Assembly: GCA_964016885.1 (NCBI GenBank) | Contig: OZ024740.1 | Location: forward strand, 396,056,001-396,120,000 | Direction: 5' to 3' | Length of the DNA: 64,000 nucleotides | Origin: Eledone cirrhosa | Taxonomy: Eukaryota | Part shown: one piece after another, positions 34,475-61,373 of the stretch | Layout: each line of letters opens with the position of its first letter | Numbering within the stretch: the first letter of the stretch is position 1 | Made by a program: the position numbers and the translations under genes | The notes under the pieces: model-generated | The model's database searches: none | What the model saw: the letters and a program-made list of their open reading frames with translations, nothing else | What the model was told of the DNA's origin: nothing

Positions 34475-35415
34475 CCCATTTATTCCTAAGAGGGTCGTAA
34501 GGGCAGAGTCCTCAAACACTCCTTCCAGCAGGTCCTGTGAGAAGCAACCGTCTCCAACTGATCCAGCTGGATATCTAAGCGTGATCAGTTAAGCTCTTGG
34601 ATGTTATCCAACCATCTTGCTTGGGGTCTACCCTTGGATATCCTGCCAGTTAGTTTTGCTCATAAAATCTGTCCAGCGATTCTTTCCTGAGACATTCTAA
34701 CCACATACCCATAGTATCAGAGCTATGATCTCTCAATTCAGAGAAGTAATGGCTCTACCTGGAGCAACTCTCTGATCTCAGCTATGCACTTTATCGAGTA
34801 GCGTTACTACAAAATCCTTCAGAGGAATCCCATTTCGGCTGCTTGTATTCGCGATCATATTCTTTCGGTCATTACCCGAGATTCATGACCATAGGTAAGG
34901 GTTGGTACAAACACTGAATTGAAGATAGCGAGTTTGGCTTTTTACACCTACGTCCCTTCTTCTGATTACTGAATGCTGAAGCTGGCACGTTACTGCACCA
35001 GCTCCTGCATTTCTTATACTTAATTCAGCCTCCCACCTCCCATCACTTCTGAACACGCCCCCAAGATACTTGAATTTCTCTACCTGCTTCAGTGGAACTC
35101 CACATGTAGCGTGCACTGCATAGGCTTCCTTGAGAAGACGAGTGTCTCAGTTTTTTCAGCACTGATTTCCATTCCAGTATGCAGTACTCAGCATCAAACT
35201 GATCCAGTGTAAGTCGAGGTTAAGTAATACCATGTCGTCTGCAAATTCCAGCCGACTGATTTTACACCTGCCGGTCATAACACCACTTCCAACCTGGCTG
35301 TGCAGGTCAATCCTGTTCATGTAAGTAATGAACAGGAGAGGTGACAGTATGCACCCTTAGCAGAGTCCGACTCCCACATTGAATGGTTTCGATTTGGCAC
35401 CATTTATCTGAACAC
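34475..35415 (-). pseudogene. RTE LINE 3' fragment of a different family (RT C-half)
   Basis: LKQVEKFKYLG, FADDMV-like and LSPLLF-like motifs on the minus strand, with stops. Confidence 0.8.
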
Positions 35416-36318: not shown

Positions 36319-37047
36319 AGTAGTTGACCTTATTTGAGAATAGCATAACCTAATCAAATGGAACTATTATATTGCAAAGAGACGGATAACAAAATAACAA
36401 TCAGTATGACAATCTTCTGCTGTTAATGATTTACACCAAAGGTTCTCAACCCATTTCGGGCCAAACGCCCCCTTTTGCCCCTCGAAATCACGAAACACCC
36501 CTTACCCTTTTTTTCCATTTTTCAATATACTACTGATTTTGATATCAGTAGATTACTAAAAAATTGATTAACGATATTCCAAAGACACTATTGCAGGCAG
36601 TTGAAAGTATAAATACATTCCTTGAAATGAAGTATATAAATTTCAAAAGAAGGAACATAAATGTTCTTTTTTATGAATAAGGACCAGTTGATTTTTTTAT
36701 ATTCCCACCAGACGATACCAGCTATTTTGAACATTTATACAAGAGCAACTCTGTCTATCCAAAGAGTGCTCTTATCTGGAAGAAGGTGGCAATTATATCA
36801 TTTCAAAGCTTTCCAATTTTCCCTTTAATAAAATGGACAGAAGAAATGTTGATATCTAACTTGATGTCCCCTCCACTTTGTGAGCTTAGAGACCACGCAA
36901 GAGGGTTTTCATGACCACCTAAGAGGGTATATTCATTAGTAAACGGTAAAATATATAGAACAAATGAGTAAGTGAATTGTGGTAGATGGTTTCCAGTCCA
37001 GTCAGACTGCAACTACAAATAAAAAAACAACTTACTTTGACCTTGTA

Positions 37048-38696
37048 TCAATGGGACCCTTGAGCTTCATGGAGTTTAGCTAACTCTTTGATGTCGGGCT
37101 GGATTTTCGTGAGCTGTAGCCGGAGATCTCCACATGCAATCACATTGTAGCGGTTGCGAGCCTTACTATGCAGTCTGGAAACAATGCCAAACCCCCTCTT
37201 GACTAAGTATGAGCTAGGAAAAGGCAAAGCAATTAATTCTTCCTGAAATTTAACGTCGAAATCGTCGACGTTAGCTATGAAGGGATCTGCTATCCACATT
37301 GGGATGTCCATCTGCAAAAGGTCGACAAACCGTTCTCTCATGTTGTCTTGTAGTGCACGGAGGTGCGCGGTATAAATTTGGAGTTGGTCATCGCTCACAA
37401 TGTTTTGAACATTGGCGACTCTAGGAAAATTATAGAATTCCCGTCGACAAAGATTCCTTTCGATGACTTTCAATTTGGCCAGGAATATTTTCACAACATT
37501 CCTTGCTTTAAACAAGGTGATCTTCTCCCCCTGCAAAGCCATAATGAGGCTATTGCATTTGTCGAAGATGTCGGCGAGGTAGGCGCAGTTTTGCCTCACA
37601 TCGAGGTTTTTTTTATACAGTTCTGTGTTGCGTCCTCGAAGAAATTCAAAGATAGTCGAACAGTTCAAAGAAGCGAGTAAGGCACTTGCCCTTTTAAAGC
37701 CACCTCACTTCAGGAGCAACTCGATGAATTCTTCGTCATTATCTTCGCACAGTTGCCGGAAAATTCGTTCATTGAGGGCATGCCATTTGATATAATTGAT
37801 GACATCAATGGCTACCTGCAAAGACTTGCTCAGCGGCTCACTGAGTTTCTTCGCAGCCAAGTGTTGTCGATGAATGACACAATGAACAGCAAATACAGAT
37901 GGATTTTCCCTCTTCAGAAGAGACGAAACCCTTATGTTGGCCGACCATTGCTCTTGCGCCGTCCGTAGCACATGATACAATATTGTTAAGAGGTATCTCT
38001 TTTTCTTCGAGGTATCCCTTGACAGATTCAAAGATGGTGGCATCTTTAGTATCTGTGGCTAGATTCAGAGTGAAGAGAAGCTCCTCGTGCATTTTGTTTT
38101 GGTGGAAAAATCGCACGTATCCCAGTAGTAAGGACTGATTCCCGGAAAGTGTGCTTTCATCAAGTTGCAAAGCAAATTGTGTCGATTTCAAGATGTTGCA
38201 TAATTTTTGTTCAACATTTTCCGCCATTTCGTCGATGCGTCTCCTTATTGAGTCATTACTCAACGGAATACATTTCAAGGTCTTTAACGGGTTCTGACGT
38301 AGTAGTGTTGAAAGAACTTCTGAGATGACAGAGGCTACCAACGTTTCACCCAAGGAATGGGGCCTGCCACACTTTGTGATTATGTTAGCAATATTGTAAG
38401 ATGAGACAAGTCCATCAACATTTGAAGTTTCAACTTTTGAAAAGGCAGAAAAAATTAGTGTTGTTTTCTGGAATTGGTCCCTAAGAGACTGAAAGTATGC
38501 TAAATCTTTATATCTCTTATCGGGGTGCCTCACCTCCAGGTGTCTACTCAAACGCGATGGCTTCATCGCCTCATTCGAAAAGGACTCCTTGCAAATTAAA
38601 CACATGGGTGACAGGTGGTTCGACGGCGATGGGATGAATCCGAACCGTAAGTTCAACGCTGTATTGCCTGCATTTTTTCTTCATTGCTGAGGCCAT
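37048..38696 (-). pseudogene. hAT Buster/Charlie transposase (ZBED5/ZBED8-like), frameshifted
   Basis: BED-type CLIC...RHLEVRH, FALQLDEST, CATDGARAMVG, HCVIHRQHL, EVRWL, and FPSSYLVKRGF (catalytic E appears as K). Split over at least 4 frame segments. Confidence 0.93.
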
Positions 38697-39427
38697 TTTC
38701 TGTTTAGCGAATGTGTTTGGTAAAGTTACGCAAAGATTTGCCTATATAAGCCTATAAAATTATGTATAAGGAACTTACTATAATGAGTCCTGTTCCAGTA
38801 TGATAAAGTTTCAAGTAATGTTCTGGAATAACACTTTGTAATAAACAAAACTGCAATGAAAAACACAAATACTGTCATTAATTAACCAAGTCGAGACAAG
38901 TTATATATGAAGATTAACCAGTCTTTCATGTAGGAATAGTAATAACTTAGCTTGAGGGAATTAAGATGGCAGACTCAATAAAGGATCGAGGCAACGAGTT
39001 CAAGAGAACTTAATGCAAGAATGACTAGTAATGTGCTATTTTGAAATGGAATTCATCAATTAAGCACGTAGTGATAAGACGCGATAATACTAAGTTAAGA
39101 CATTACTTATTAGTCAGAGTTACTCAAATTATCGCCCTTAATGCATCACTGTGATATTCTTGTAATGGTGCTGCAATTATAATGGATGACTGTTGAAGAC
39201 TACAAAAGCACTTCCTTAAACCCAAGGCTATAACAAGACTTGATCGTAGTATAAACAGTCAGTTTATATAGGAATAGCAACAACCTAGTTATAGAATAAA
39301 TGATGTTGGAAATGCAATGAAGATAAGATGGGGGTCAAGCAAACCCAATGTTAGTAAGAATGAGCTGAAGTATCGAGGTCAACCGATCACGGTGATGAAT
39401 GGATCAGTGAATAATGTTGCTCTTTTC

Positions 39428-40860
39428 CAGGGGCCTCGTTTGCCTTAAAAATGTGAGGGGGACAAACCAACATTTGTTGGAGCATTTTAGTATTACTTAT
39501 GGTGTCTTTCCTGAACCCTATCGCATAAGTAAAAATTGCTTTACGCTAATTAAATTTTATATATTAAAATGAAGTTCAGATATAAAATAAAAAAAAGCTT
39601 AAAAAGTATTTATTATATCAAATAAACAAAAAATAAAACAGACGTTTGAATAAAAATCATATAAAGTAAATTTATTGTCTTTTAGAACTTTCCAAATGTA
39701 TCATATCTCGCATCATTGCTGTCAATTTAGCAACTTCTTCACAACTAATCTTTTTCAAGACATCTTTATGACGTCTCATATTAGAATATGATTCAACCTT
39801 TGCTGAGTCATGGTCGATCGCAACCAAGTTTTGATGAGTCTCTGTAGAGCGCTAAAAGATCTTTCAGCTTCACAAGAACTGGTTGGAAACATTAAAAGTA
39901 GCCTGAGCAATCGCTCAACATTTAGAAACATGCAACAGACTTCTGGTTGCATTTCACCGAATATTTTACGATGATCCTCGAGAGATGATCCATTATGATG
40001 ATTTCTATAAAAAAGTATTTCGTTCCTTAAAGAACATTCATCAAGCTCTGGATACTGCATGATCACTTCAGCACAAACATTTCCATTGAGTAAAATATTG
40101 CTCAGTTTTTCATAATCTGCTAAATCCTGTGAAAAAAAATAATCTTTCAAATTTGATATTGCAGTATCCGCTACCTGCAAATACTGCACTCTGTAATGAT
40201 CCAAAGCAGTGCAGTGTTGATATTTTAATGCATTTCCTTCCTGGTATCTTTTAGGAACTTTTCGTTGCCTGGGTAGCTCCAAAGGAGAGATATCGAGTTG
40301 ATAAATCATTTTTTTCTGCTATATTGAACAGCTCCTGAAATTTTTCTTCACTGCGTAGATTTTTTTAGCTCCTCCTGCACCAGTTTGACACTCTGCAACA
40401 TGCTACCTAGATTGAAGGTGCTACTTTGAAAAGATATGTTCAAAATTCAAGGAATTGAAGTAATGGAACTACAACGTGCAATCCAAGAACACTGGCCCGG
40501 AGAGTTACACGTAAGAATAACATTAGCTCTGGATGCAATGTTGGTGCCAAACTCATTTGCTGCCTCTTGTAAAGAAATAGGGACATCTGAATAATTGTCA
40601 AGAAGGGCTTTGACTGCAGAAAGTTGTGTTAGCCATCGAGTAGGGCACACAGGTGTTAAGGAGCATGGTGACGATACTTCATTTTCTTCATCATGTGATA
40701 AATATCTTGCTTAAATTTCTCTGATGTACTATATAGTTTCCGCAATTCATTCACATAACCTAGAACATTTTTGATAAGTGAAGCTTGTTGTACAGACTTA
40801 GTTATAGTAAGTTGAGAAATATGAATGCCGCAGTGCATGTAATGGGCCAAATCAAGTTAT
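39428..40860 (-). pseudogene. Second hAT transposase remnant (Tip100/ZMYM1-like), C-terminal half
   Basis: YMHCGIH, CPTRW, and the hATC dimerization motif PTSSCEAERSFSALQRLIKTWLRSTMTQQRLN. CAGGGGC terminus-like sequence at 39428. Confidence 0.88.
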
Positions 40861-41077
40861 GTTAGAATCTTTAAAAAGATCTTTAAAAAATACCCGTACG
40901 AATTAAATACAAAAAAAGTTTCAGTCCAAAACAAAAGCAAACTATTTCAAATTATATATTTTTGAAAAATAGACGTGAATGTTCTCAAAGACTTGAGTTC
41001 AGTCGAAAACGCTTCTTTTTTTAAAAATTATATATTTCACTGTTTGCTGTTGTAATATTTTGATTGGATAAACAATT

Positions 41078-41277
41078 NNNNNNNNNNNNNNNNNNNNNNN
41101 NNNNNNNNNNNNNNNNNNNNNNNNNNNNNNNNNNNNNNNNNNNNNNNNNNNNNNNNNNNNNNNNNNNNNNNNNNNNNNNNNNNNNNNNNNNNNNNNNNNN
41201 NNNNNNNNNNNNNNNNNNNNNNNNNNNNNNNNNNNNNNNNNNNNNNNNNNNNNNNNNNNNNNNNNNNNNNNNNNNNN
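41078..41277. other. Assembly gap (200 N)
   Basis: Run of N flanked on both sides by TGATTGGATAAACAATT. Confidence 0.99.
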
Positions 41278-41677
41278 TGATTGGATAAACAATTCTACAA
41301 TTCAAACAGTAAAGTCAAAATACAAAAGATGTAAAATATGAAGAATTTCTTACCTTTCTCTGAAATCACAATCTCAGGGGAAAAATAGTACCTTGCAAAA
41401 TAAAATACCTTGTAGCAAAATAAAATACTTAGCAACGAATGAAGCTTGGAGACTGAGAAAGTAGTATTTGTATCCCTTATATACAGACAGGCAGGCAGGC
41501 AGGCAGGCACGCGCGCGGATTGGGTACAGAAAGAATTGTCTACAGTTTTTTATTGCCAGGTCAAAGGCCACTGCTCCTTTCAACAAAACACACACACACA
41601 CGCACACGCACGAGGGACAGAGATAGTAAGAAATGTGTGTGTGTGTGTTTGGTACACATCTATCTATCTATGTCCAA

Positions 41678-42077
41678 CAGGGGGTTCACACATGCGGCCC
41701 ACGAACTACTTATTTGTGGCCCGTGGTAGAACCAATATTTCATATCGCATTATAACTGGTGAAAATAAGGCGGCGAGCTGGTGGAATCGTTAGCACATCT
41801 GGCGAAATGCTTAACAGTACTTCTTTCGTTTTTACGTTCTGAGTTCAAATTCCGCCGATCTCTACTTTGCCTTACATCCTTTTGGGGTCGATGAATTAAG
41901 TACCAGTTGTGTACTAGGATTGTGGCAATCGACTGAACCCTAAACCCCAAATTTCATGCCTTGTTCCTATAGTAGAAATGATTATAACTGGTGAAAATTT
42001 TCACCCACCACGTTTGGCCCACTGTGCCTCTCCTCCAGGACGTAATAGCCCTTTTGTGTCCTTGAGTTTGACACCCC
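41678..42077. mobile_element. Small hAT-type MITE interrupted by a SINE
   Basis: CAGGGGGTTCACACATGCGGCCC start and GAGTTTGACACCCCT end, with GGCCC subterminal motifs. Confidence 0.55.
41767..41980 (+). mobile_element. Full-length Deu/Nin-type SINE with 18-bp TSD
   Basis: ATTATAACTGGTGAAAAT at 41749-41766 and 41981-41998; boxes A and B intact; CpGs retained. Confidence 0.92.
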
Positions 42078-42366
42078 TCTTCTACACACATACACACATA
42101 TTTTACTTTTTTTCTGTCTCTGGACTACCCCCATGCTAGAGCATCACCTTGGTATGTTATGGGGACGTCAACAAACCAACAAGCATTGGTGGGAGGGCAA
42201 ACGCAAAGACACACACAGACATATATACATATATACGACGGGCTTCTTTTAGTTTCGATCTATCAAATCCACTCACAGGGCTTTGGTCAGCCCGGGCAGT
42301 GGGACTGAACCCGGAAATATGTGGTTGGGAAACAAGCTTCTTGTCACACTGCATATATATATATGT

Positions 42367-42595
42367 AGGTGTCACAACAAAAAAACACAGTCCACGCTGT
42401 AATGTGGCCGTGTAGGTAACATGGTAAAAACCTCCCAGTTCACACTGTAAACGTGGTTGGTGTTAGGAAGGGCATCCAGCCGTAGAAAACCCGCCAGACA
42501 GTCCTATACGAGCAGGACAACCAATCTTGCCTCAAGTGGGAAAACTCCCGTCCAAACCCATGCAAGCGTGGAAGATGGACATTAAACGATGATGA

Positions 42596-42600
<5 letters not shown>
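42367..42600 (+). mobile_element. RTE 3' UTR fragment
   Basis: Matches 50037-50289; ends in (GAT)n then (TA)n. Confidence 0.85.
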
Positions 42601-42641
<41 letters not shown>

Positions 42642-42989
42642 TTTAAACGTATAATGTTTGATTTGTCCAGGTGTATTTTTTCAACCTGTTCTTTCGTTAC
42701 TTTGGTATTGTGTGTTAGATTTTGCCTACCACAATGTTCAATTTGTCAAGCTATTTAAACGTATGTTATTACTCTGAGGACCTACCTTATCGAGTGCTTT
42801 GCTAACTCATTCATATCGTAGGTCGAATTTGCTTGCACACTGCCAAAGATTCGATTTTACTAAGCCTCCAATTATGTATGTGTGTGTAATATATCACACA
42901 CACGCACATGCACCCCCTTACACACTTAAATATTAATGCATGTATATATACTAATGTAGAAATGCATACATATATTTACGTATGTATAT

Positions 42990-43010
42990 AGCTATGTATG
43001 TATGTAGATT

Positions 43011-43044
<34 letters not shown>

Positions 43045-43457
43045 GATTTATATATATATTTATATATGTATGTAGATTTATATATATATATGTATGTAGA
43101 TTTATATATATATATGTATGTAGATTTATATATATATGTATGTAGATTTATATATATATATATGTATGTAGATTTATATATATATATATATATATATATG
43201 TAGATTTATATATATATATATGTAGATTTATATATATATATATATGTAGATTTATATATATATATATATATAGATTTATATATATATATATATATATATA
43301 TATGTAGATTTATATATATATATATATGTAGATTTATATATATATATATATGTAGATTTATATATATATATATATGTAGATTTATATATATATATATATG
43401 TAGATTTATATATATATATGTAGATTTATATATATATATATATATATATATGTGTAG

Positions 43458-43495
<38 letters not shown>

Positions 43496-43607
43496 AGATT
43501 TATATATATATATATATATGTAGATTTATATATATATGTAGATTTATATATATATGTAGATATATATGTAGATTTATATATATGTAGATTTATATATATA
43601 TATGTAG

Positions 43608-43660
<53 letters not shown>

Positions 43661-43682
43661 GATTTATATATATATATATATA
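42990..43682. repeat. Compound minisatellite GTAGATT(TA)n
   Basis: About 30 units with variable TA length. Confidence 0.95.
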
Positions 43683-44214
43683 AAGTATTAAAAAAATAAT
43701 GAATAAAACAATGAAACAGTTCCTTATATTAAACAAAAAAAGTTCATTATTTAACGATCGTTTCTAGGACATATATGTGTTAGAATTGGCATGCATATTC
43801 AACAGATCTATGTACAAAATTATACAAAATTATACAAACTATCAAATCTAATATACATACCAACACATACATATGCCGTCTTCAGAAATAATGAAATATA
43901 TTTATTGATAATAACAATTCAAAATTACAGGTCTGTTTGGGAACAGAGTTCAAATTGACCAATGAAATACACAAAAATATATCAAGAAAATACAGTTAGG
44001 TGTGTGTATATATGTAAGTAACTTTGTTCACAGATATGCATAAGAATATATGTTCACATGTATACGCATGTCGAAAATATGTATGCAAATACAAAAATTC
44101 AGGGTTAATGTCTCTGTATGTTTATAATCTACAGATAAAATACACATACGTATATAAACATAATACATATTCATATATACACACACATATACACACACGC
44201 ACGCACACACACAC

Positions 44215-44894
<680 letters not shown>

Positions 44895-45165
44895 ACTATT
44901 ATTATTATTATTATTATAACTACATGGATATTAAGGCGCGCACACAAAAACACTGCCACATACATTTTTACATATATATGCAGAAGATGGTGAAGGGAGT
45001 CAGTAATTACTAAGGGTGTCAGAACTGCCTATTTATAAAATGTATCTATAAATTTAGAAATAAAAAGAAATATATTAAAAAAATAAACAAATAAAATATA
45101 TACTCATACATAGAATACACACTCATAAATAAAATACACACCGATATATATATATATATATACAT

Positions 45166-45929
45166 ATCATCATCATCATCAGGTTTAGCGTCCGTGTTCC
45201 ACGCTTGCATGGGTTTGGACGGGGGTTTTCCCACTTGAGGCAAGAGTGGTTGTCTTGCTCGCATAGGACTGTCTGGCGGGTTTTCTACAGTTGGATGCCC
45301 TTCCTAACACCAACCACGTTTACAGTGTGGGGCTGGGAGGTTTTTACCGTGTTGCCTACACGGCCACATTACAGCGTGGACTGTCTGGCGGGTTTTCTAC
45401 AGCTGGATGCCCTTCCTAACACCAACCACGTTTACAGTGTGGGGCTGGGAGGTTTTTACCGTGTTGCCTACACGGCCACATTTACAGCGTGGACTGTGTG
45501 TTTTTTTTTTTTTTTTGTCGTGACACCTACACGATCTCATTTGTTTCGGCCTGGATGTTGTGGGACCAACATAACTTTACATTGAAAGGGGCGGTGTGGA
45601 TGGGGTGGAGGTGGTGGGACCGGGGGTGTTTTGATAGAGATGCCTACTGACTGTAGTAGGTTTTTACTTTGTATTTAGGTAAGGCGGGTCTTCTCTATTA
45701 CTGAGTACCGCCAAAGGTCTCGGTCCAGTGACATTGTCTTGGAGAGGTGTAAGCGTGTGAGGTCGGAATTTATCAGCTCGTCCCATGTTTTTCTGGGTCT
45801 GCCTACTCCGTGGCTACCGTCTATCTTTATTGCCCTGCACTTTGTTATACAGCTGTCATCTTTCATGCGCATCACGTGACCGTACCAACGTAGCCTTCTC
45901 TCGAGTAAACAACATCTGATCCCTCTTAT
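45166..45929 (-). mobile_element. RTE LINE 3' fragment, same family as the 46.6-50.3 kb LINE
   Basis: Reverse complement of 49664-50289, with an extra ~112-bp tandem duplication in the UTR. Confidence 0.92.
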
Positions 45930-46683
45930 TTATATATATATACATATATATATATACACACACATATATACACGCATATATACATACACATATACATAGA
46001 GACACATACACATACATATATAAATACATAGACACACATGCATACACACACATATATATATATATACATATATTCTCAACACACGTATATATATACACAT
46101 ATATGTATACACATATACACACATACATACATATACATACATATACATATATACATACACACACATATATATACACACATATACACACACATATATACAT
46201 ACACATATATACATATATCTCCACGAGGGGCTGCGGTCAGCCACAATCTCTCTCCCCCTTCCCCTCTCTCTTTCTTCCCTTTCCCCCTCTCTCTCTCTTC
46301 CCCTTCCCCTCTCTCTCTCTCTCTTAGCTACACACACACACACGCACACGCGCGCGCGCGCAAAATCCGAAATCTGTATTTTTTGTTATCTATTTAAGGT
46401 TTAAATACGGTGTTTTTGTCGTATTGAACAGAACAAATCTTGCAGTTTTGCTTTTTGTTAAATCGCTTGTTAAACATTCATAACCTTCCAGCTAGCTACA
46501 CACCACCATTCTTAATACGTGGACCAATCATAAGCCAGAGCCCCCCCCCCACGCATCACCATTATTATAAGCCAGAGCCCCCCCCCCCCCCCCCCACGCA
46601 TCACCATTATTATTATTACGCGGACCAATCATAAGCCAGAGGCCTATACTATCGCTTGCCCGGTTGCCTTCGATATATGATGG

Positions 46684-47937
46684 ATGGATGGATGGACGGA
46701 CTGCGGAATCCTGGAGAGTGGAAGGGAGAGAAAAATCTGGACGCTCAGAGCGAAAATGCCAAAGTTAAAGTCAAATTCACCTCGTGGACGAGAATGCGAG
46801 CACTCCTCTTTGTTTCGTCCGCAGATGGCTAACATAACCCTATCTCCCCCCGCCCCCCACCACCCCCACCCTCCAAACGCAACCCAAAACTTCAGAGTTG
46901 GTACCATAAATGTAGGCACCCTAAAGGGTCGCGCTAACGAGGTTGTAGAAATGCTTGAACGTAAGGAGGTCGATGTTTGTTGTATTCAAGAGACCAGGTG
47001 GAGGGGTGGGTCTGCTAGATTCATTGAGGGTAAAAAACGATGTTATAAGCTTTTCTGGGTGGGAAACGACGATGGGCTGGGTGGAGTAGGAATCATGGTA
47101 GCAGAAAAGTGGGCAGATAAGATAATAGACGTAAATAGAGTGAACGACAGAATAATTAAAATACGACTTGTCCTCAATAGAACTACGGTGACAGTAATAT
47201 CTGCGTACGCACCCCAATCCGGACTGCCCGGCACTATAAAAGACAGATTCTATGAGACACTGTTGCTAACTACCTCCCAAATATCTGACAGTGACTATAT
47301 AATTATTGCAGGCGACCTAAATGGTCACGTTGGACAACATTGTGACGGCTACGACGAAATCCATGGAGGCTATGGGTTTGGTACTAGAAATGAGGAAGGC
47401 TCCAGAATCCTGGAATTCTGTGATGCAAATAACCTAACTATCTGTAACACTAACTTCAAAAAACGTGACAATCACCTGATCACCTATAGATCCGGGGAAC
47501 ACACAAGCCAGGTAGATTATATCCTTACCAGAAGACGTGACAGAGTGTCTGTTGTAAACACTAAATCCCTCCCCCATGAAGAATGCACCTCCCAACATAG
47601 ACTGATAATTAGCGACCTCATAGTCAGGACGAGACGTACTCGACAGCAGAAGAGGACTATCCTCAGGAGGAAAATATGGAAACTAAAGGACCCCACAGCC
47701 AGAAATAAATTTCAAAGCATATTACTTGATGCTTTCGACAGTAAGGAAGAGCATCTAGAGTCGGACAATATAGAGGGACAGTGGGAATTTCTGAAAGCAA
47801 ACCTGCTGTTGGCGACAGACGAAGTCTGTGGCTGGAGCAGGCCTGTAGGCAGGAGGAGAGTAACATGGTGGTGGAACAGTAGGGTGGAGGGGTCAATTAA
47901 GGCCAAAAAGCAGGCTTGGAAAGTATGGGGGAAGTAG
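46684..47937 (+). CDS. RTE ORF, N-terminal part: AP endonuclease
   Basis: GTINVGTL, CIQETRW, SAYAPQ, GDLNGHVG, QVDYIL, TSQHRL. Ends at a frameshift. Confidence 0.92.
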   Translation: MDGWTDCGILESGRERKIWTLRAKMPKLKSNSPRGRECEHSSLFRPQMANITLSPPAPHHPHPPNATQNFRVGTINVGTLKGRANEVVEMLERKEVDVCCIQETRWRGGSARFIEGKKRCYKLFWVGNDDGLGGVGIMVAEKWADKIIDVNRVNDRIIKIRLVLNRTTVTVISAYAPQSGLPGTIKDRFYETLLLTTSQISDSDYIIIAGDLNGHVGQHCDGYDEIHGGYGFGTRNEEGSRILEFCDANNLTICNTNFKKRDNHLITYRSGEHTSQVDYILTRRRDRVSVVNTKSLPHEECTSQHRLIISDLIVRTRRTRQQKRTILRRKIWKLKDPTARNKFQSILLDAFDSKEEHLESDNIEGQWEFLKANLLLATDEVCGWSRPVGRRRVTWWWNSRVEGSIKAKKQAWKVWGK

Positions 47938-47950
47938 AGTAGACTATCAA

Positions 47951-49930
47951 GTGGCCAGGAGGGAAGCTAGGAGAGAAGTGTACTTAGCAAGAAGGGAAGC
48001 TGAGGAAAGAAAGTTCAAGCATGTTCTACAACGCGATGACCAAAAACGTGAGGTGTTCAGGATTGCTAGGCAATGCGTCAAGGAAAACCGTGATATTGTC
48101 GGAGAGAAGTGTGTACTTAACGATGATGGCATACTTGCCATCACCGACACTGATAAGAAGGTAGCTTGGAAGTGTCACTATGAAAGGCTACTAAATGAGG
48201 AGAACAAATGGGAGAAAGACAGTCTCCCCCATATCGACCCAATAGAGGGACCAGCAGTGTTAGTCGAGGGGAGTATAATAAGTAAGGCAATCAAGGATAT
48301 GAAGACGGGTAAGGCGGCTGGGCCTTCGGAAATAGTTGCTGAGATGCTGAAGGCATCTGGCACGGTGGGACACACCATGGTCACCCGCATAGTTAACCAA
48401 GTCGTACAGAATGGGGTTGTTCCGAAGGACTGGCATAGCAGCATCATCGTTAACTGTTATAAGGGTAAAGGAGACGCCCTAGATAGGAGTAACTATAGAG
48501 GCATTAAATTAATCGACCAGGTCATGAAGGTCACGGAAAAAGTAATAGCGCAACTAATCAGAGAGAGAATTGACCTAGATGAAATGCAGTTCGGGTTTGT
48601 GTCGGGCAAAAGCACCACAGACGCTCTTTTCATAGTACGACAACTACAGGAGAAGTACCTAGCTAAAGGTAAACCCCTCTACTTAGCTTTTGTCGACCTG
48701 GAGAAAGCCTTCGACAGAGTCCCCCGCTCCATTATCTGGTGGGCTCTTAGAAAACTAGGCGTTGACGAATGGCTTGTGAGGGCTATACAAGCCATGTATA
48801 AAGAAACAGTCAGCAAGGTTAGAATTAACAACGAATATAGTGAAGAGTTTAGCGTAAAAGTTGGCGTCCATCAGGGCTCTGTTCTCAGCCCCCTACTATT
48901 TATTATTGCCCTTCAGGCTATAACAGAGGAGTTCAAGACACGCTGCCCATGGGAACTCCTATACGCAGACGACCTGACACTCATAGCGGAATCAATGGCC
49001 GAGCTAGAGAAGAAATTCCAAACATGGAAGCACGGCCTAGAGTCAAAAGGACTTAAAATTAACCTGGCTAAGACCAAAGTTCTAGTTTGTAGGAAAGAAA
49101 GCAAGGCGGCGGTCCCTTCTGGGAAATGGTCGTGCTCGGTGTGTAGGAAAGGCGTAGGTAGAAACTCCATTTTATGTCCTAAATGCAAAGTATGGGTGCA
49201 TAAAAGATGTAGTGGGATCACAGGTAAGCTAACTAAGAACATAGATTTTACATGTGGCCGGTGTTCTGGTGCAATAAGTAGCAGCAAGTGCCCACAAAAT
49301 ACTAGCTCTTTCAATTGCGCAGAGGGTTCTATAGAAATAGTGGACAGCTTCCGTTACCTGGGCGATAAAATCAGCAGTGAGGGAGGGTGCTCTGAAAGTA
49401 CTGTAGCTAGAGTCAGAACTGGTTGGAAAAAGTTCAGAGAGCTTATACCACTATTAGCTGCTAAAGGGTTCTCCCTAAAAATGAAAGGCAGGTTGTACGA
49501 TGCCTGCATACGAACAGCAATGTTGCATGGTAGTGAGACCTGGGCATTGTGTGCAGAGGATATACGCAGACTAGAGAGGAACGAAGCTTGCATGTTCGGC
49601 TTGATGTGTAACAGTAATAAACGTGAACGGCAAAGCATAAACAAACTAAGGAAAAAATTAGAGATAAGAGGGATCAGATGTTGTTTACTCGAGAGAAGGC
49701 TGCGTTGGTATGGACACGTGATGCGCATGAAAGTCGATAGCTGTATAACAAAGTGCAGGGCAATGAAGATAGACGGTAGCCACGGAATAGGCAGACCTAG
49801 AAAAACCTGGGATGAGCTGATAAACTCTGACCTCACACACTTACACCTCTCCAAGACAATGTCACTGGACCGAGACCTTTGGCGGTACTCAGTAACAGAG
49901 AAGACCTGCCTTGCCAGTAGGCATCTCTAA
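47951..49930 (+). CDS. RTE ORF, C-terminal part: reverse transcriptase with PHD-like finger
   Basis: NYRGIKL, QFGF, FVDLEKAFDRV, GVHQGSVLSPLLF, YADD, C4HC3 motif, RLRWYGHV. Confidence 0.95.
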   Translation: MARREARREVYLARREAEERKFKHVLQRDDQKREVFRIARQCVKENRDIVGEKCVLNDDGILAITDTDKKVAWKCHYERLLNEENKWEKDSLPHIDPIEGPAVLVEGSIISKAIKDMKTGKAAGPSEIVAEMLKASGTVGHTMVTRIVNQVVQNGVVPKDWHSSIIVNCYKGKGDALDRSNYRGIKLIDQVMKVTEKVIAQLIRERIDLDEMQFGFVSGKSTTDALFIVRQLQEKYLAKGKPLYLAFVDLEKAFDRVPRSIIWWALRKLGVDEWLVRAIQAMYKETVSKVRINNEYSEEFSVKVGVHQGSVLSPLLFIIALQAITEEFKTRCPWELLYADDLTLIAESMAELEKKFQTWKHGLESKGLKINLAKTKVLVCRKESKAAVPSGKWSCSVCRKGVGRNSILCPKCKVWVHKRCSGITGKLTKNIDFTCGRCSGAISSSKCPQNTSSFNCAEGSIEIVDSFRYLGDKISSEGGCSESTVARVRTGWKKFRELIPLLAAKGFSLKMKGRLYDACIRTAMLHGSETWALCAEDIRRLERNEACMFGLMCNSNKRERQSINKLRKKLEIRGIRCCLLERRLRWYGHVMRMKVDSCITKCRAMKIDGSHGIGRPRKTWDELINSDLTHLHLSKTMSLDRDLWRYSVTEKTCLASRHL

Positions 49931-50610
49931 CAAAATACACCCCGTCCCGCCACCACCCCCACCCCATCCACACCACCCCGTTCTATGTAAAGTTATGTTG
50001 GTGCCGCGCCATCCAGGCCGAAACAAATGAGATCGTGTAGGTGTCACGACAAAAAAACACACAGTCCACGCTGTAATGTGGCCGTGTAGGCAACACGGTA
50101 AAAACCTCCCAGACCCACACTGTAAATGTGGTTGGTGTTAGGAAGGGCATCCAACTGTAGAAAACCTGCCAGACAGTCCTATGCGAGCAAGACAATCACT
50201 CTTGCCTCAAGTGGGACTACCCCCGTCCAAACCCATGCAAGCATGGAACACGGACGTTAAACGTTGATGATGATGATGATGATGATGATACACATACACG
50301 CACATATATATATACACACACACTCACACATATATATACGTATATATACACACACACACATATCCATATATGTATATACACATACAACCACACACTCACA
50401 CAACTCAGACATACATAAATAAAGAGATATACATACACACATATACATATACATATATATATATATATATAGATATATACATACACATAAATATATATAC
50501 ACATACACACACACACATACATACACATATATATATATATATACACATATATATATACATATATATAAAGAAAAAAAAAAATAAATAAATACACACAGTC
50601 ATACAATTAT

Positions 50611-50651
<41 letters not shown>

Positions 50652-50776
50652 CACACATCTCTACAAATATATATACACACACGCACACATACATATATAC
50701 ATACACACATATATATACACATAGACAGATACATACACACACATACATACACATATATATACATACATATATATAC

Positions 50777-50827
<51 letters not shown>

Positions 50828-50829
50828 GA

Positions 50830-51440
50830 CATGGTGGCTGCCAACTCGTTTTCGAGTACGGCCACTACTTTATATCCATGTAGGAGAACCCCTACCGATG
50901 CGCTGAACGAGTGTGACTTTTTAGTCCAGCCAGCGACTTGAAAACTCTGGTACAAACACTACACTTGTGACAATTACTGACACATAGTGCTGGGCCCATG
51001 GTACCATGTGACGACAAGTGCAGAGAGATCTCCAGATATAAAGCAATGCCTGTGCCGTGAAGCTTTTATAGTGAGCAAAGGCACTGCACAAAGCCAGTCC
51101 CACTCTCTTAACCAAGATGATATTTACCAAAAAGAAGAACAAGTCAACATCATTGGATACCATCAGGGTTGCAGGTGTTATATCAGAGTTTTCCTTCTCC
51201 TAGAATTCTGCCTTGACAAAGGCTAAGGGGTCATCTCTCCCGGTGATTTTGGATGGCCATTGACTCTTAAGAGCTCCTTTGCCCTTTGACAGGTTTTGTT
51301 TTTAGTCCTGCAGGATGTCCAAAGTCACCCTCCTCACCAAGAAACCTTGGTGGGGTTGCCAGTTTAGTCGCCAACGACCCGACCATGGGACAGGTTGTAC
51401 TGGGATACATGTTACCAGTAGCACCAACTGGTGACCTGAC
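50830..51440 (-). mobile_element. Probable isolated RTE-type 5' UTR fragment
   Basis: GC-balanced island between microsatellites; minus strand has CTAGGAGAAGGAAAACTCTG and GGCGACTAAACTGGCAACCCC, which resemble RTE leaders as I recall them. Confidence 0.45.
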
Positions 51441-51699
51441 ATATATAGACATACACACTTATTTACATGCGCACATATGTATTTTTATACTCACATACAA
51501 ACACTCAAACATACATACCTACTTACATACACATACATACATCCACGCTTACAAATACAAATAATCATGGGGGGGGGGGATTAAAATTATTAGTGGGAAA
51601 TAGTAAATAAGAATATTAATCTACATTTAGATCATAATGTGTGTTTACATAGTAGTTTTAGTATTAGGAAATGTAAGAAAGAAGGCAAAATTATGCATT

Positions 51700-52066
51700 T
51701 TAATATAAGTATACTATTAATTATAGGTTAACTAAATTAAAAATAGTTAATATATTGATTTCTAAGGTGTATACTACTTAGGTTTATAATATTTAAAGCA
51801 GAATTTTGAAGTTAAACAGTAGTAGAGTATTAATTATAGCATAACTAAATTAAAAATATTAACATTATGGTATCAATATTAGGAAATGAATTTAGTAATA
51901 GGGAAAACCAAATCAAGTATTTCATCGGTAGTAGAATATAAATTATAGGTTAACTAAATTAAAAATTATATATTAAATTCTATAGTATATGTTAATTAGG
52001 TTTATAATAATTAAAGCAGATTTTGTATTTTATCTATAGTGGAATATAATTATAGGTTAACAAAAA

Positions 52067-52112
<46 letters not shown>

Positions 52113-52625
52113 ATTGTAAAGAATATATTAATTAGGTATATATTTTAAAATTTATCTCAGTTTATGATTACATGATATTCTGCAATCTATCTGTATTAGA
52201 ATTTTAATTTTAAGCTAATTAAATTAAAATTATAGGTTAACTAAATTAAAATTAATTTATAAATAAATTTCTAAATTGTACATTAATTAGGTTTATAATA
52301 TTAAAAAATATCTCTCTGTTATTGATTACACGATATTTTGTTATATTTCATCTGTAAAGGAATTTTAATAAAAGGTTAAATAAACTAAAATTAATCTATA
52401 AATTAATTTACAAAGTATATATTAATTATGTTAATAATATTTAAAAGTTTTTCACAATTTATGATTACACAATATTTTTTAATCTCATCTGTAGTAGAAT
52501 TTAATTAAATTAAATTTATAGGTTAACTACATTTAAATTAAATTATATATTAATTTCTAAAATATATATTATTAATTAGGTTTATAATATTTAAATGTTT
52601 TTCTCAGTTTATGATTACACGATAT
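51700..52625. repeat. Diverging tandem array (~110-145 bp unit) derived from the Penelope ORF end
   Basis: TTATAGGTTAACTAAATTAAA-like anchor at about 51721, 51835, 51943, 52050, 52230, 52372 and 52516. Confidence 0.8.
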
Positions 52626-53354
52626 AATTAATTCCTGTCGCTTATTTAATAGGATATCCTTAGATTTCATTATTTCAAATAGTTCTTGGGAACATAATCT
52701 ACATTCATTTCTATTATTTTGATAAGGGGTGGCTCTTTTGAGCACACTCCAGGTCATATCATATTCTATATTCTTATTTCTATAACTATTAATTTTTTCT
52801 GCTAGAGATGTTGTATTAGCCAGTGCGGCATTTTTAAAACTATGTTTGTGGGTATTAAACCTTACCTTAAAATTGTTAGAAGTAGCTCCTATATATGAGC
52901 AAATAGAATCTTTAGTTTTAACTTTACATTTATAAACTATGTTGTTAACAAGACAATTTCCTTTTAATGGGCAGTTTGCTTTGTTTCTACAGTTACAACC
53001 TTTCGTTAATTCTGTATTTGAGGAGATATTATGGTTAGTTTGATGTATTGGTGGTATACTTATGGTATTTTTACATTTATATGCATTATAGGCACTTATA
53101 TTTTGTTTTATGTTTTTGGTTGTTGAATATGAGAATTTAACTGTTGACCTATTTAAGATTTGATGGTATTTGTGGTTTGGCGGGAAGTTTTTCTCTAAGA
53201 TATAAAAAAAATTTTTACCAATATTATCCTTAATTTGTAAATTAAATGGAGCATTATACCAAGTAACTCGTCTATTACGGTTTCTATGTTGTTTATTATT
53301 TTTATAGGTTGTATCGTGATGGAGGATTAATGTTAATGACCTCACCACGCACAT
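52572..53354 (-). CDS. Penelope-like element: GIY-YIG endonuclease region
   Basis: WYNAPF, CNCRNKANCPLKGNC, NIVYKC...YIGAT...FKVRFNTH, CRLCSQE, LNKRQE. Confidence 0.92.
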   Translation of the reverse strand: MCVVRSLTLILHHDTTYKNNKQHRNRNRRVTWYNAPFNLQIKDNIGKNFFYILEKNFPPNHKYHQILNRSTVKFSYSTTKNIKQNISAYNAYKCKNTISIPPIHQTNHNISSNTELTKGCNCRNKANCPLKGNCLVNNIVYKCKVKTKDSICSYIGATSNNFKVRFNTHKHSFKNAALANTTSLAEKINSYRNKNIEYDMTWSVLKRATPYQNNRNECRLCSQELFEIMKSKDILLNKRQELIISCNHKLRKTFKYYKPN

Positions 53355-54795
53355 TTTTAGTTAGATTTATTGATTTAGGTGTTTTATCTTGTTTATTAGG
53401 AGTTTTATTATTAACATTTATTAGAGTTGTATGATGAGTAGTTTTTTGAGAGTTACTATACTTTATATTAGAGGAGTTGTTGGTATTTTGGGGTATAGTG
53501 TGGGTGGCATTTAGGTGTGTACTTTTCATTTGGTGTTTGTTGGTAATATTAGGTTGTATGTTTATAGTATTTTTAGTAGAAGGTATATATTCTAATCTAT
53601 TTTTGTGGCCACTTCTATCTAGAGCTTCGTTATAGAAGGTCGCATTTTTATCAAATACATCTTGGTTAGACGAAAGGTTAGAAATTCTAAGTGATATATT
53701 ATATGCAAGGTTTTTAAGGATAGATTTAGGGTGATTAGATTGTGAGTGTATGTAGTGTAAGTTTTGGTTGGGTTTATGGTAAGGTTGGTAGATACCCGTA
53801 GCTAAGTCTAAAGTTATATCTAGGAAATTAACTACTTTACTTGTGTTTTCAAAAGTAATATGAAGACTATAATAGTCTTTAAGGAAAGTTCTAATAAGCT
53901 TTTTGTTTTTTTCTATTTCTGAGAGGCTAAGGTTGTTGGAAAGAAGAAGACAGTCATCACGATATAAACCACCTTTAAGGTGGGGAAAGGAAGCATTTAT
54001 GTTGAAAAGAAGAAAGAGGCCCACAAGATCAGTAATTTGGGCAGAATTGCTTGAACCCATAGTAATATCAAATAGATTACTATATGTGTTTCTGGTCCAG
54101 TATTCATTCTGAAATTCAATAAGTGTTAGTCTAGCATGTGTAATAATATTAATGTCATCCAAAGTTAAGTTAGATCTATTTTTAGCAAATATCAAAGCTT
54201 TGTTCAGGAGTATAGGTGATATAGAAGAATAGTAATTATCTATATCAAATTGTAGAAATGAAGCAGAAGATTTACATTTAATATTTTTAAACCAGTTAAT
54301 TACCTGGGAAGTGTTTTCCCAGAGTGGTAAATTAACATGTTTTCTTATTTGTGGGATGACTCTATCCAAAATTTTTTTGCTAATTATTCCAATATCAGAT
54401 TTGGAGGGACATATAAGTCTTATAGAAGGATTTGAGTTAAAGTTTGATTTATGATCCTTCAGGTTGAAGTGTGGTCTTTTCAATGCCAAAGGTTCAGTTC
54501 TATCTTCAATGTTTAGTTTTTTTACTATGTTGTGTGTTTTGTTGTTAATGTTGGTGAGTGACGCATTATTAGATTTTTTATAATTTTTCCTGAGTTCTTT
54601 ATATATGAACTCATTATAATCCTCAATATCCATGTGATACAAGTTTCCAGTTTTGTCTGAGTGGACATGGATTTTTTAAGACTTTTTTAGGTCCAATAGG
54701 GTAGAATCAAGGTCCTTTTGAAAGACAGATTTATACTTCTTAAATTTGAGGTGTTTAATTAAATTAAAAAGGTCTTTCTCAAAGTCTTCAAGTAG

Positions 54796-54797
<2 letters not shown>
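53302..54797 (-). pseudogene. Penelope-like element: reverse transcriptase, 5'-truncated (Naiad-like)
   Basis: SDKTGN, LKDHK, IRLI, FDIDNYYSSI, ITMGS, YRDD, NFLDITL. Frame continues upstream of 54642 through one TAA to the (TA)n tract; frameshift to the endonuclease part. Confidence 0.92.
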
Positions 54798-54829
<32 letters not shown>

Positions 54830-54898
54830 TATGAGGAGAGAAGAAACATTTAGATATAATTAGTAATAAAATGTATCATACCTAAACTGTTCCTAAAT

Positions 54899-54986
54899 TC
54901 CTCGACTACGTAGTTTCGTGGCATAAACAAAAACAATATATCAAAGATATAGAGTCCTTGCGAGGTCTGCCGACTTATCAAGAGGA
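54899..54986 (-). ncRNA. Type I hammerhead ribozyme, U3-A8 core variant (copy 1)
   Basis: Minus strand: UCCUC-UUGAUAA-GUCGGCA...UGCCAC-GAAA-CUACGUAG-UC-GAGGA. Predicted cleavage between 54904 and 54903. Confidence 0.82.
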
Positions 54987-55489
54987 TACCTCATTTTACT
55001 AGTCTCAAGAACGCGTCTACACGACGTGAGAAAGAATCCCAAAAGGCGGAGGGGGAGATAGTCACGCGATATAACGGTCGAGAAACAGAGCTAAGCCTCT
55101 TATAACCACGAAGAAAATACCACAGAGGCGGAGGGGGTATTCATATCGAGGCCGTAGAAGAGGTAGTGAAGAAGGCGAGAAGTATGAGTAATGGAAGCTT
55201 TCCAGTTGTCCCCACACTTCAAAGATTGCTCGACCAGAGGGAGTTATTAATATATTTAGAAACACACAGATACATGCGGACACACACATATATACATGAA
55301 TGCATCCGCACCCAACTGTGAGTTAAGGGTGCCAACTTCACCGATGTTGCTCAATGAATGACTGGGACAGACCAATTCAGTTTGAACCAGACTGAACCAG
55401 TATCAGAGTTAAAAATACATTATGAAGAGAGAAGAAACATTTAGATATAATTAGTAATAAAATGTATCATACCTAAACTGTTCCTAAAT

Positions 55490-55577
55490 TCCTCGACTAC
55501 GTAGTTTCGTGGCATAAGCAAAAACAATATATCAAAGATATAGAGTCCTTGCGAGGTCTGCCGACTTATCAAGAGGA
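55490..55577 (-). ncRNA. Type I hammerhead ribozyme, U3-A8 core variant (copy 2)
   Basis: Same motif, one substitution in the stem II loop region. Predicted cleavage between 55495 and 55494. Confidence 0.82.
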
Positions 55578-56311
55578 TACCTCATTTTACTAGTCTCAAG
55601 AACGCGTCTACACGACGTGAGAAAGAATCCCAAAAGGCGGAGGGGGAGATAGTCACGCGATATAACGGTCGAGAAACAGAGCTAAGCCTCTTATAACCAT
55701 GAAGAAAATACCACGGAGGCGGAGGGGGTATTCATATCGAGGCCGTATTTTCTACGCCCCCCTACCCCCGAGCTACGAACCCCCCCCCCCATTGAGAACC
55801 TTTAATTTACACGATAACATCCCTAGTATCCACTGTAGTGTGGTTGATGTTAGGAATGACATTCAGCCATAGAAAAATTGCCAAACAAAGGATTGAGAGG
55901 ACACTTTAGCTATGTCAAAGACATGACAATTTCCTTAGGGTTGGTAATTTATATGGTAAATGCACCCAGTACACTCTGTAAAGTGCTTGGTGGTAGGAAG
56001 GGCATCCAGATATAAAAGAACTTGCCAAACAAAGGGTCCTGAAGACTCACCAGCTGTGTCAAAGACATGACAATTTTCCTATTGCTGGTGCCATGATAAA
56101 ATGCACTCAGAATGTCGGAACGTAGTTTCACATGTGTACTGACTCAGTCTGTGACAATATGTTCAACCCTTGCTAGAAAGGAAAACAGACTACAAATGAT
56201 GATAACAATTACTGCTTGGTTTTTGTTTTTTCCCCTTCATCTAACAGGGAAATATCAATTCATTGAGGGTTTTTTTTGTGTTTTGGCTTATATCATTCAG
56301 TACATCACCCC

Positions 56312-56538
56312 TTAACCCTTTAGCATTCACATTACTCTATATTTACTATTGTATTTTCAGAGAAAAGGCTTTACTTCACATAAATATCTCACATAATATT
56401 GAGTCTAAGATTTTGATATTATTTATTATGAGAACAATACCTTAAAGTCGGTATGAGGGGCCAGTTACAGCTGCTTTGAACAGAAAGCTGTGAGAAAATT
56501 CTGGACGGATATTGCCGGTTTAAATGCTAAAGGGTTAA
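56312..56538. mobile_element. piggyBac-like MITE
   Basis: TTAA-CCCTTTAGCATT ... AATGCTAAAGGG-TTAA. Confidence 0.82.
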
Positions 56539-57222
56539 TTTATTTATCTAAATTCATAAACAATGGCCTTATTGAGCTATTTCCCTTAGCTCATTTTATT
56601 TTTGTAATTAAGACAATAGCAGTGTTGTAATTAATTGTGAGTATAAGGTTTTCTATTAGCTAATTGATATTTTTAACTTTGTTCTTCTCGCAGTTTTTAA
56701 TTTAAGTTTCTTTGTTGATATCTTATGTTTTTTTTATATTTTTTCATCAAGTAACTCAGATAGAAAATGTCAGCTGACTTGTCTTGACTTGTAGTAATAC
56801 ACTTGAAATTAAATTGCTTGTAGCTGAAATGATTTAATAGGTTAGTGCTATTGGACAAAACACAAAGTTAGTATTTGAAATTATATACAAAGCAAGAAAG
56901 CGTGAAAAAAATATCCCCCTCTCACCAAAGAGCAATAATTAATTTTAAAATGTTCATGATAGCTGTGGGATTAAGTAGTTCGCTTTACAATCATATGGTC
57001 CATGTTTGATCCCACTTTGTGGTATTTTGGACACGTGTTTTATATTGTAGTCTAGGGTTGACCAATGCTTTATCACTCATTCAATAAAGGTCAATAAAGT
57101 TTTACTAGGCTGAACTGGTAAAGGGAGTTGGGGTCATATGATCAACTAAAATCCTTGAGATCAGTGCTAGATTACAGTCCAGGGATTGAAACCAATAAAA
57201 TAATAAAAGACTATAATCTTAA

Positions 57223-57449
57223 TTAACCCTTTAGTATTTACATTACTTTATATTTACTATTATATTTTCATGGTAAAGGCTTTATCTAACAATTATCTCA
57301 CATAATATCGAATCTATGAGATTTTGATATTATTTATTTTGAGAACAATACCTTAACATCAGTATGAGTGCCCAGTTACAGCTGGCTTGAACAGAAAGAG
57401 GTGAGAGAAGTCTGACCAGATATGGTCGGTTTAAATGCTAAAGAGTTAA
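57223..57449. mobile_element. piggyBac-like MITE
   Basis: TTAA-CCCTTTAGTATTTA ... TAAATGCTAAAGAG-TTAA; same family. Confidence 0.8.
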
Positions 57450-59387: not shown

Positions 59388-59492
59388 ATGCCAAGGTTGA
59401 CTTTGCCTTTCATCCTTACGGGGTCGATAAAATAAAGTACCAGTAATGCACTGGGTAATTGCTGGCCTTGTGCCTAAAGTAGAAACAATTAT
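59388..59492 (+). mobile_element. Deu/Nin-type SINE, 3' half
   Basis: Near-identical to the reverse complement of 36140-36240. Confidence 0.85.
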
Positions 59493-59668
59493 ATTTAAAT
59501 CAACATTCTCATTTGTTTTACTGGATTATATATAAAATCCCCAGTATGTCTTATTGTTTGATATTCTTGCTGTTTTTCTGTTTCATTGTTTCCTGTCTTT
59601 GTAGAGAAATATTTTTTTACACTAAGGGTGCTACATGAAAGTGTGTATATATATATATATATCATCAT

Positions 59669-61326: not shown

Positions 61327-61373
61327 CATCATCATCATTTTACGTCCACTTTTCCCTGCTTGCAAAGGTGGAA

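Follow-up and report, generated by a model that had tools for sequence, protein, structure and literature searches.

The window analysed here, a stretch of 64,000 nucleotides of Eledone cirrhosa (contig OZ024740.1, positions 396,056,001 to 396,120,000), contains a unit of 19,368 bases that carries the ends of a Buster-type hAT transposon and encloses several other transposon classes. This length is measured from terminal inverted repeat (TIR) to TIR, with a 200-N assembly gap counted in. An 8-bp target site duplication (TSD) of the form nnnTAnnn, ATTTACAC, flanks the unit and is identical on both sides (36429–36436 and 55805–55812). Immediately inside it, the left TIR CAAAGGTTCTCAA (36437–36449, + strand), which is the element's 3' end when read in the direction of its transposase and with which the sibling copies also start, agrees with the right TIR TTGAGAACCTTTA (55792–55804) at 12 of 13 positions. 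The original prediction, made from the sequence alone, had placed 13-bp TIRs and identical 8-bp TSDs 19.4 kb apart; the TSD is exact as proposed, and the TIRs show one mismatch, in keeping with the short, imperfect TIRs of Buster hATs. The window belongs to a 3.0-Gb animal assembly.

The Buster shell and its family master

The left end of the unit yielded 1647 first-look candidates, which should not be taken as copy number; the 39 further matches that were scored are 92–95% identical to it. For the sibling set, 10 kb was fetched from 39 loci and 19 of these were extended to 20 kb; 38 siblings were counted, with loci L039 and L079 left out of all sibling counts. The terminal A of the right TIR is the family norm, occurring in 15 of the 20 siblings closed at both ends. 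The predicted Buster-like target is likewise borne out, TA occupying positions 4–5 in 35 of 36 family targets, a count that omits three siblings with damaged left ends. For a family target drawn at random, the probability of coinciding with ATTTACAC is ~0.005, and identical TSDs occur in 4 of 630 pairs of family targets; hence, the two ends very likely belong to a single insertion.

Near the left end lies the Buster-type hAT transposase that had been expected there (37048–38690, − strand), though it is broken by frameshifts and by a copy-specific 117-bp deletion at ~37232. Its fragments are 47–57% identical to proteins named ZBED8, SCAND3-like and ZBED5/7/8/9. The named matches are mostly these and DUF4371 proteins, with best E-values of 1e-120 to 1e-70, and an unnamed protein of 594 aa matches at 76%. 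The assignment to the Buster clade is by similarity, without a protein tree, and Pfam returned no match on the two transposase fragments. At the opposite end, only ~56 bp of the Buster right arm survive (55749–55804, + strand), ending in the right TIR; siblings possess an arm of ~640 bp, so that ~580 bp are gone. With its frameshifts, its deletion and this reduced arm, the window copy is not autonomous.

Between these ends, several segments belong to the family rather than to this copy. A second, unrelated hAT transposase is represented by its C-terminal half (39685–40850, − strand; aa 402–792 of a 792-aa relative), which is ~80% identical to the 792-aa protein and ~25% identical to the Buster transposase over a short stretch. 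The 200-N gap follows (41078–41277); the sequences on either side of it share a 17-bp overlap and run on without a break in siblings. The next segment (41278–42355, + strand) comprises microsatellites, an empty (TATC)n target of long interspersed nuclear elements (LINEs) at ~41660, and pieces resembling short interspersed nuclear elements (SINEs) that also occur in the flanks. Further on (42916–43680, + strand) come a family-master arm and, as the main hot spot for insertions, a GTAGATT(TA)n array that has expanded. The siblings have in common the transposase, the second hAT fragment, the sequence spanning the gap, the stretch of microsatellites and SINE-like pieces as far as 42367, an inverted arm pair around the (TA)n array, and the ~640-bp right arm. 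The inverted arms bordering the array measure ~80 bp (window 42916–43000; mirror arm, for example, in L058 and L036) and could form a hairpin or cruciform. The array between them is the strongest hot spot of the family, and the window copy lacks the right arm of the pair.

None of the best 15 transposase loci is a 'clean' 3-kb autonomous Buster: in 14 the sequence continues into the captured DNA, and the remaining locus is a derivative with an internal deletion. Open Buster frames of 584–588 aa, without a stop within the match, exist in L120, L123 and L127, which are possibly the last autonomous copies. Since nearly all of these loci run on into captured DNA and some frames are open, the autonomous master was most likely itself a composite of ~7 kb, which already held foreign DNA in the form of half of another hAT, SINE pieces and microsatellites.

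Nested elements and hammerhead-like motifs

The additional ~12.5 kb of the window copy is made up of a Penelope-like element (PLE) with three LINE pieces inside it, the short end of an RTE, a small repeat and a retrozyme-like tandem with a 591-bp unit. The other transposon classes predicted inside the unit are thus present as RTE LINEs, a PLE and the second hAT fragment. The short RTE 3' end (42368–42598, + strand) sits in the first (TA)n tract. It is followed by a repeat of ~230 bp (42640–42870), also found in L034 and L040, whose degenerate hammerhead-like core fails the scan.

The PLE (43680–54796, − strand) is 5'-truncated and is inflated by nested inserts and by (CACT)n/(CT)n expansion. 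Its open reading frames (ORFs) encode a reverse transcriptase (RT; 53302–54675, − strand) as well as a GIY-YIG-type region at the C-terminus (52572–53360, − strand), beyond which a long microsatellite-rich 3' part extends. This order of RT and GIY-YIG endonuclease is that of Penelope elements. There are 323 relatives, the listed ones being mostly ~700 aa long and one being named GIY-YIG endonuclease; Pfam gave no match on the Penelope ORFs. The nearest named relatives of the RT come from Argonauta hians, in keeping with a repeat landscape of octopod type, and a Cys-rich linker suggests what we take to be the Neptune clade. The truncation lies at 54796, where GTAG meets the target motif GTAGATT(TA)n. 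Twenty related Penelope loci share one layout, which corresponds to 43680–44300, 44860–45167, a microsatellite and 51441–54796 of the window. These loci are often partial tandems or inverted pairs, an arrangement described for PLEs (PMC8557442); partial tandems of pseudo-long terminal repeats (pLTRs), inverted copies and a hammerhead motif in the pLTR, all characteristic of PLEs, are found. The Penelope 3' end usually adjoins (TA)n in the related loci, also outside Buster, and no Buster core occurs in the 20 loci within the 10 kb fetched, which reach ~1 kb past the Penelope 3' end. Two loci ~0.6 Mb apart, L098 and L099 (C4), are near-identical in Penelope and flanks, as in a segmental duplication or an assembly duplicate.

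Three LINE pieces are nested in the PLE, within its microsatellites. A 5'-truncated RTE (45144–45920, − strand) lies in a Penelope microsatellite; a near-full-length RTE with endonuclease, RT and PHD-like finger, its ORF split by a frameshift, occupies 46218–50290 (+ strand); and at 50830–51441 (− strand) lies a 3' piece that derives from a second RTE-like LINE family and bears a C2H2 finger at its C-terminus. An RTE subfamily had been said to occur only inside the unit. This is true within the window, where the inside RTE is 77% identical to an RTE outside at 59.6–61.3 kb; genome-wide it is not, the inside RTE having 1910 candidates with near-full matches of 88–97%. The 77%-related RTE carries duplicated 3' ends and stands just outside the unit (59640–62100). 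In both RTEs (46681–49930 and 59639–61024) a PHD-like finger directly follows the RT domain (PF00628, E 1e-5 and 2e-6).

The internal DNA once thought unique and free of transposons is also repetitive. A first look at the segment 43685–44150 gave 2527 candidates, and the 39 further matches that were scored show identities of 97–99%; indeed, each of the large cargo pieces is a genome-wide family. Only 712 bases of the unit have no match in the fetched loci, and their runs of at least 40 bases are the N gap and two microsatellite stretches. As these bases are mainly gap and microsatellite, neither host genes nor unique host DNA was found as cargo inside the unit.

Beside the truncated end of the PLE, a young retrozyme-like tandem with a 591-bp unit in ~1.6 copies and without a long ORF occupies 54824–55748 (− strand). 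It directly adjoins the remaining ~56 bp of the Buster right arm and is ~99% identical to its best relatives, most of which also sit at (TA)n. Each unit contains a hammerhead-like motif (near 54900–54985 and 55491–55576, − strand) in which U3 and A8 occur and stem III is palindromic. This motif occurs twice in 7 of 9 related loci under the strict pattern, and its minimum-free-energy fold shows the three stems only partly. A hammerhead core with U3 and A8 can be active. The 591-bp family (the window tandem and L012–L020) is very young and inserts as circularly permuted partial tandems. In the Penelope pLTR, a type I hammerhead motif (43745–43895, − strand) has a stem I of 10 bp and an unusually long stem II of 114 nt (9+ bp), with its core at 43885 (− strand); it recurs in 19 of 20 related loci versus 1 match in 30 shuffles. 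Rfam returned 0 matches over the whole window at gathering thresholds; relaxing the limit to E up to 5 brought up nothing but miRNA look-alikes driven by microsatellites, with no hammerhead family among them. Two scans for short-stem hammerheads were likewise negative, and the motifs emerged only on allowing a long stem II or the U3-A8 core, the latter first spotted by eye. The ribozymes proposed inside the unit are accordingly represented by three hammerhead-like motifs from custom scans and by none from Rfam. These candidate hammerheads belong to the retroelements and not to the hAT.

Probable stepwise filling of the unit

The siblings reveal where the family takes up DNA. Twenty of the 38 close with a right TIR and a TSD (0–1 mismatch), at lengths of 4468–16089 bp and a median of 7.5 kb; six of these 20 exceed 10 kb. 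The large inserts of the 20 differ from copy to copy and lie mostly in microsatellite tracts. The 21 closed copies, the window copy among them, contain 26 expansions that measure at least 300 bp, part of whose length is microsatellite growth rather than insertion, and 22 fall in microsatellite zones: 15 in the (TA)n array (13 script-binned and 2 at its edge), 3 in (TATC)n and 4 in neighbouring microsatellites. Of the others, 3 lie within the initial 4.76 kb and the right arm has 1. Both anchors of the (TATC)n tract were located in 29 siblings, of which 8 contain a two-ORF LINE with RT, presumably Tx1-like, in one orientation and at lengths of 0.4–11.3 kb; the differing lengths indicate independent events, and a (TATC)n-targeting LINE lineage is likely. 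The LINEs at this site (L022, L023, L028, L030, L045, L046, L052 and L059, corresponding to ~41660 in the window) derive from more than one family and are 72–92% identical to one another. In L041, L057 and L039, family copies are nested in or adjoin each other, with extra right TIRs that have other TSDs.

Measured against the majority sequence of each family, non-CpG divergence decreases from the shell to the inner layers: 52/4129 and 15/862 for the Buster core (1.3–1.7%), 14/3079 and 6/440 for Penelope (0.57% pooled), 7/1942 for the RTE (0.36%), 2/827 for the retrozyme-like tandem (0.24%) and 0/581 for the second LINE, the last three steps not being separable from each other. Furthermore, the four junctions tested are unique. 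The Penelope 5' truncation junction has 1 match in 3.0 Gb at up to one mismatch, and the core/RTE, retrozyme/right-tip and 117-bp-deletion junctions are each spanned by the window locus alone among 40 scored candidates. The left ends of 39 copies have a mean pairwise identity of 95.1%, with no pair above 98.2%, and the window copy has no close sister (best identity 96%; end branch 0.023 versus a median of 0.019).

From sequence comparison, we consider it highly probable that a copy of this high-copy composite Buster family grew from ~7 kb to 19 kb in place, through successive younger retroelements that seek microsatellites. A normal element with nested insertions had been offered as one of two readings of the locus, and the unique junctions, the divergence ladder and the sibling hot spots support it. 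In the proposed order, Buster would have landed and made the TSD; its GTAGATT(TA)n array would then have received a Penelope-like element, whose own microsatellites, like the (TA)n tract, would have taken up RTE-type LINE pieces, and the retrozyme-like tandem would have inserted beside the truncated 5' end of Penelope. The right arm would also have lost ~580 bp, likely leaving the copy immobile by analogy with AnBT, a related Buster studied in another host, in which a 58-bp right end is reported to give very limited activity in HeLa cells (PMC12637253). Stepwise filling in place and the present immobility of the copy are what we infer from these data, and the unit has probably acted as a landing pad, not as a vehicle for joint transport.

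Several points weigh against this reading. The ladder is indicative, since the parts were dated against a small number of top-ranking relatives (7–38 per part). Transitions at Penelope CpG sites (4/58) are about as frequent as in the older core (27/336), as if the two had stayed similarly long in this CpG-poor region; this similarity, in small counts, would allow Buster and Penelope to have arrived together. Because no sibling has to remain after cut-and-paste transposition, unique junctions do not strictly exclude a single move of a partly loaded element. Eighteen of the 38 siblings remain unclosed (13 followed over 20 kb and 5 over 10 kb), and some of them may be longer than the window copy or may have lost their end. 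Finally, a passenger of 0.45–0.8 kb sits at one site in L043, L048 and L124, members of one deletion subfamily, which means that the family can duplicate nested inserts. The passenger (L043:2620–3423 and L048:2580–3030 in element coordinates, and L124), whose ends we take to be Helitron-like, is the sole sign of co-duplicated nested cargo. On the tree, L043 and L048 are not sisters, with weak support, and the deletion subfamilies require one change each, as expected for amplifying derivatives.

The CpG level, which had been put forward as evidence for joint movement, must be read against the family. The observed/expected (o/e) ratio is indeed higher inside the unit (0.69) than in the left (0.26) and right (0.35) flanks. 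The closed siblings, however, average 0.74, and the first 2.5 kb give 0.78 in the window copy versus 0.80 ± 0.07 in 38 siblings; such a family-wide level reflects young transposon DNA rather than a recent arrival of all parts together. CpG loss in the core amounts to 8.0% (27/336) versus 4.3% in siblings, ranking 6 of 39, and this fits long residence in a CpG-poor region. The flanks at 1–36428 and 55813–59600 are strongly CpG-depleted (o/e 0.23–0.26), which suggests a methylated region such as a gene body. No host gene was recognised by Pfam on 80 of 171 candidate ORFs in the flanks, the only hit being a weak RT fragment (35159–35356); as no exon appeared among these 80 ORFs, the 'intron' setting is unproven. 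Words of the left flank occur in three sequencing runs of one sample (0.6–0.7 of words, plus one small share).

The alternative that survives best holds that Buster gained Penelope, and perhaps the RTEs, elsewhere and moved here as a 12–18-kb unit by means of the transposase of an intact sibling, with the tandem and the loss of the arm coming later. The similar CpG decay in core and Penelope, the siblings with open transposase frames, the passenger common to three siblings and a master already beyond typical hAT size would all accord with it. Against it stand the unique junction of the Penelope truncation, a Buster burst that looks older (by the pairwise identities given above) than this cargo (97–99% identity among Penelope relatives), and closed copies that share no large insert by junction. 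Cargo size also penalises a related Buster: for AnBT in HeLa cells, a cargo of 8.5 kb is reported to have cut activity by ~90% (PMC12637253), and a review describes natural cut-and-paste cargo as usually limited, with efficiency falling above 6 kb (PMC6431247). A related Penelope inside a Buster copy, L056, was considered as shared cargo and rejected on its 86–91% identity, other deletion subfamily and inverted structure. This history is regarded as improbable. The general proposition behind it, that the family naturally moves loads above the usual hAT range and that this copy came as a Buster and Penelope unit of 12–18 kb, is held to be unlikely; if true, Buster would both seed microsatellite landing pads and relocate trapped retroelements and ribozymes.

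Very unlikely, in turn, is that each end stems from a separate copy of the family, with a scaffolding error at the gap, or recombination between copies, having brought them together. The gap within the unit, the absence of most of the right arm and the abundance of the family would permit it, whereas the overlap and sibling contiguity of the gap sides, the perfect TSD and the chance and pair figures given above oppose it. Least credible of all is the movement of the whole 19.4-kb block, retrozyme-like tandem included, as one vehicle: a perfect TSD and intact TIRs do enclose the block, but its youngest parts are 98–100% identical to relatives, the right arm is down to its tip, the four junctions are unique, and the arguments from internal DNA, RTE and CpG, on which the original prediction had relied for a single cargo-loaded move, all fail.

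The search for other copies with the same cargo and different TSDs gave a concordant result. When the inserts of closed copies were compared, none of the large ones had junctions in common, and no large cargo with the same junctions recurred at two or more sites with different TSDs; only the small passenger recurs. A smaller version of the cargo idea holds nonetheless: the ~7-kb master carried foreign DNA, and one small passenger is present in three siblings.

Relation to known systems

Buster hATs (TcBuster, AnBT, Mar and the domesticated kin ZBED5/ZBED8/SCAND3) resemble the present family in their 8-bp TSDs of the form nnnTAnnn, the reported target consensus (PMC3517528), in their short TIRs and in related transposases. 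Unlike them, the master here is ~7 kb long with captured foreign DNA, and its copies reach 16–19 kb through later inserts; tested Buster elements are given as 2.5–3.0 kb (PMC12637253) and hATs as 2.5–5 kb (PMC3942097). In the literature searched, which left Repbase, supplements and most subscription journals outside, there was no description of this Buster family or of a natural hAT of such size. An octopus repeat survey names hAT, RTE, L1-Tx1 and Penelope as recently active, and no such composites figure in the part of it considered here (PMC13282606).

Long DNA between mobile ends also characterises Starships, Pack-MULEs and the 14-kb ToxhAT/ToxTA, for which the same load at different sites, or host genes, are described (PMC6431247, PMC12506042); unlike these, the present family shows no recurring large load, and the unit contains no host gene. 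ToxhAT itself, cited as a large 'hAT', is reassigned to Tc1/mariner (PMC12506042). Compared with animal non-LTR retrozymes, reported as tandem, non-coding, PLE-derived or PLE-dependent elements with type I hammerheads (PMC7229834; bioRxiv 10.64898/2026.07.22.740005), the tandem here is alike in being a non-coding repeat with one type I hammerhead-like motif per unit. It differs in its U3-A8 core and in a monomer of 591 bp, outside the reported 150–450 bp (PMC7229834).

At the level of the single locus, the arrangement is ordinary nesting; at the level of the family, it acquires a wider meaning. An autonomous composite hAT of ~7 kb carried microsatellite tracts to about a thousand sites, a rough figure from candidate counts, and retroelements filled them. 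This offers a concrete route by which one transposon burst feeds the later growth of a microsatellite-rich animal genome. Meanwhile, the family provides a dated panel of equivalent target sites for studying how Penelope-like elements, RTEs, two-ORF LINEs and retrozymes choose their targets. It also counsels caution, as 'giant' elements bounded by TIRs and TSDs in such genomes are often shells filled after landing.

The nearest parallels are DNA transposons that serve as retroelement targets, namely Xenopus Tx1D with Tx1 and the crocodilian Mariner-N4_AMi with Tx1-Mar and SINEU-3 (PMC4494074). As in these, an abundant DNA transposon repeatedly takes independent retroelement insertions at fixed internal sites; unlike in these, the attraction here appears to be generic microsatellites, used by Penelope-like, RTE, two-ORF LINE and retrozyme-like elements. 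Preference for (TA)n or other tracts, and transposons that carry microsatellites, are reported for MuTAnT, Micron, TAFT and MINE, for Kibi/Koshi and for Penelope-like elements (PMC4486113, PMC4494074, PMC8557442). In the present case both properties are joined, one autonomous family spreading the tracts and others filling them over three levels of nesting. The system is thus a variant of the known transposon-as-target systems, a composite Buster family that seeds microsatellite landing pads.

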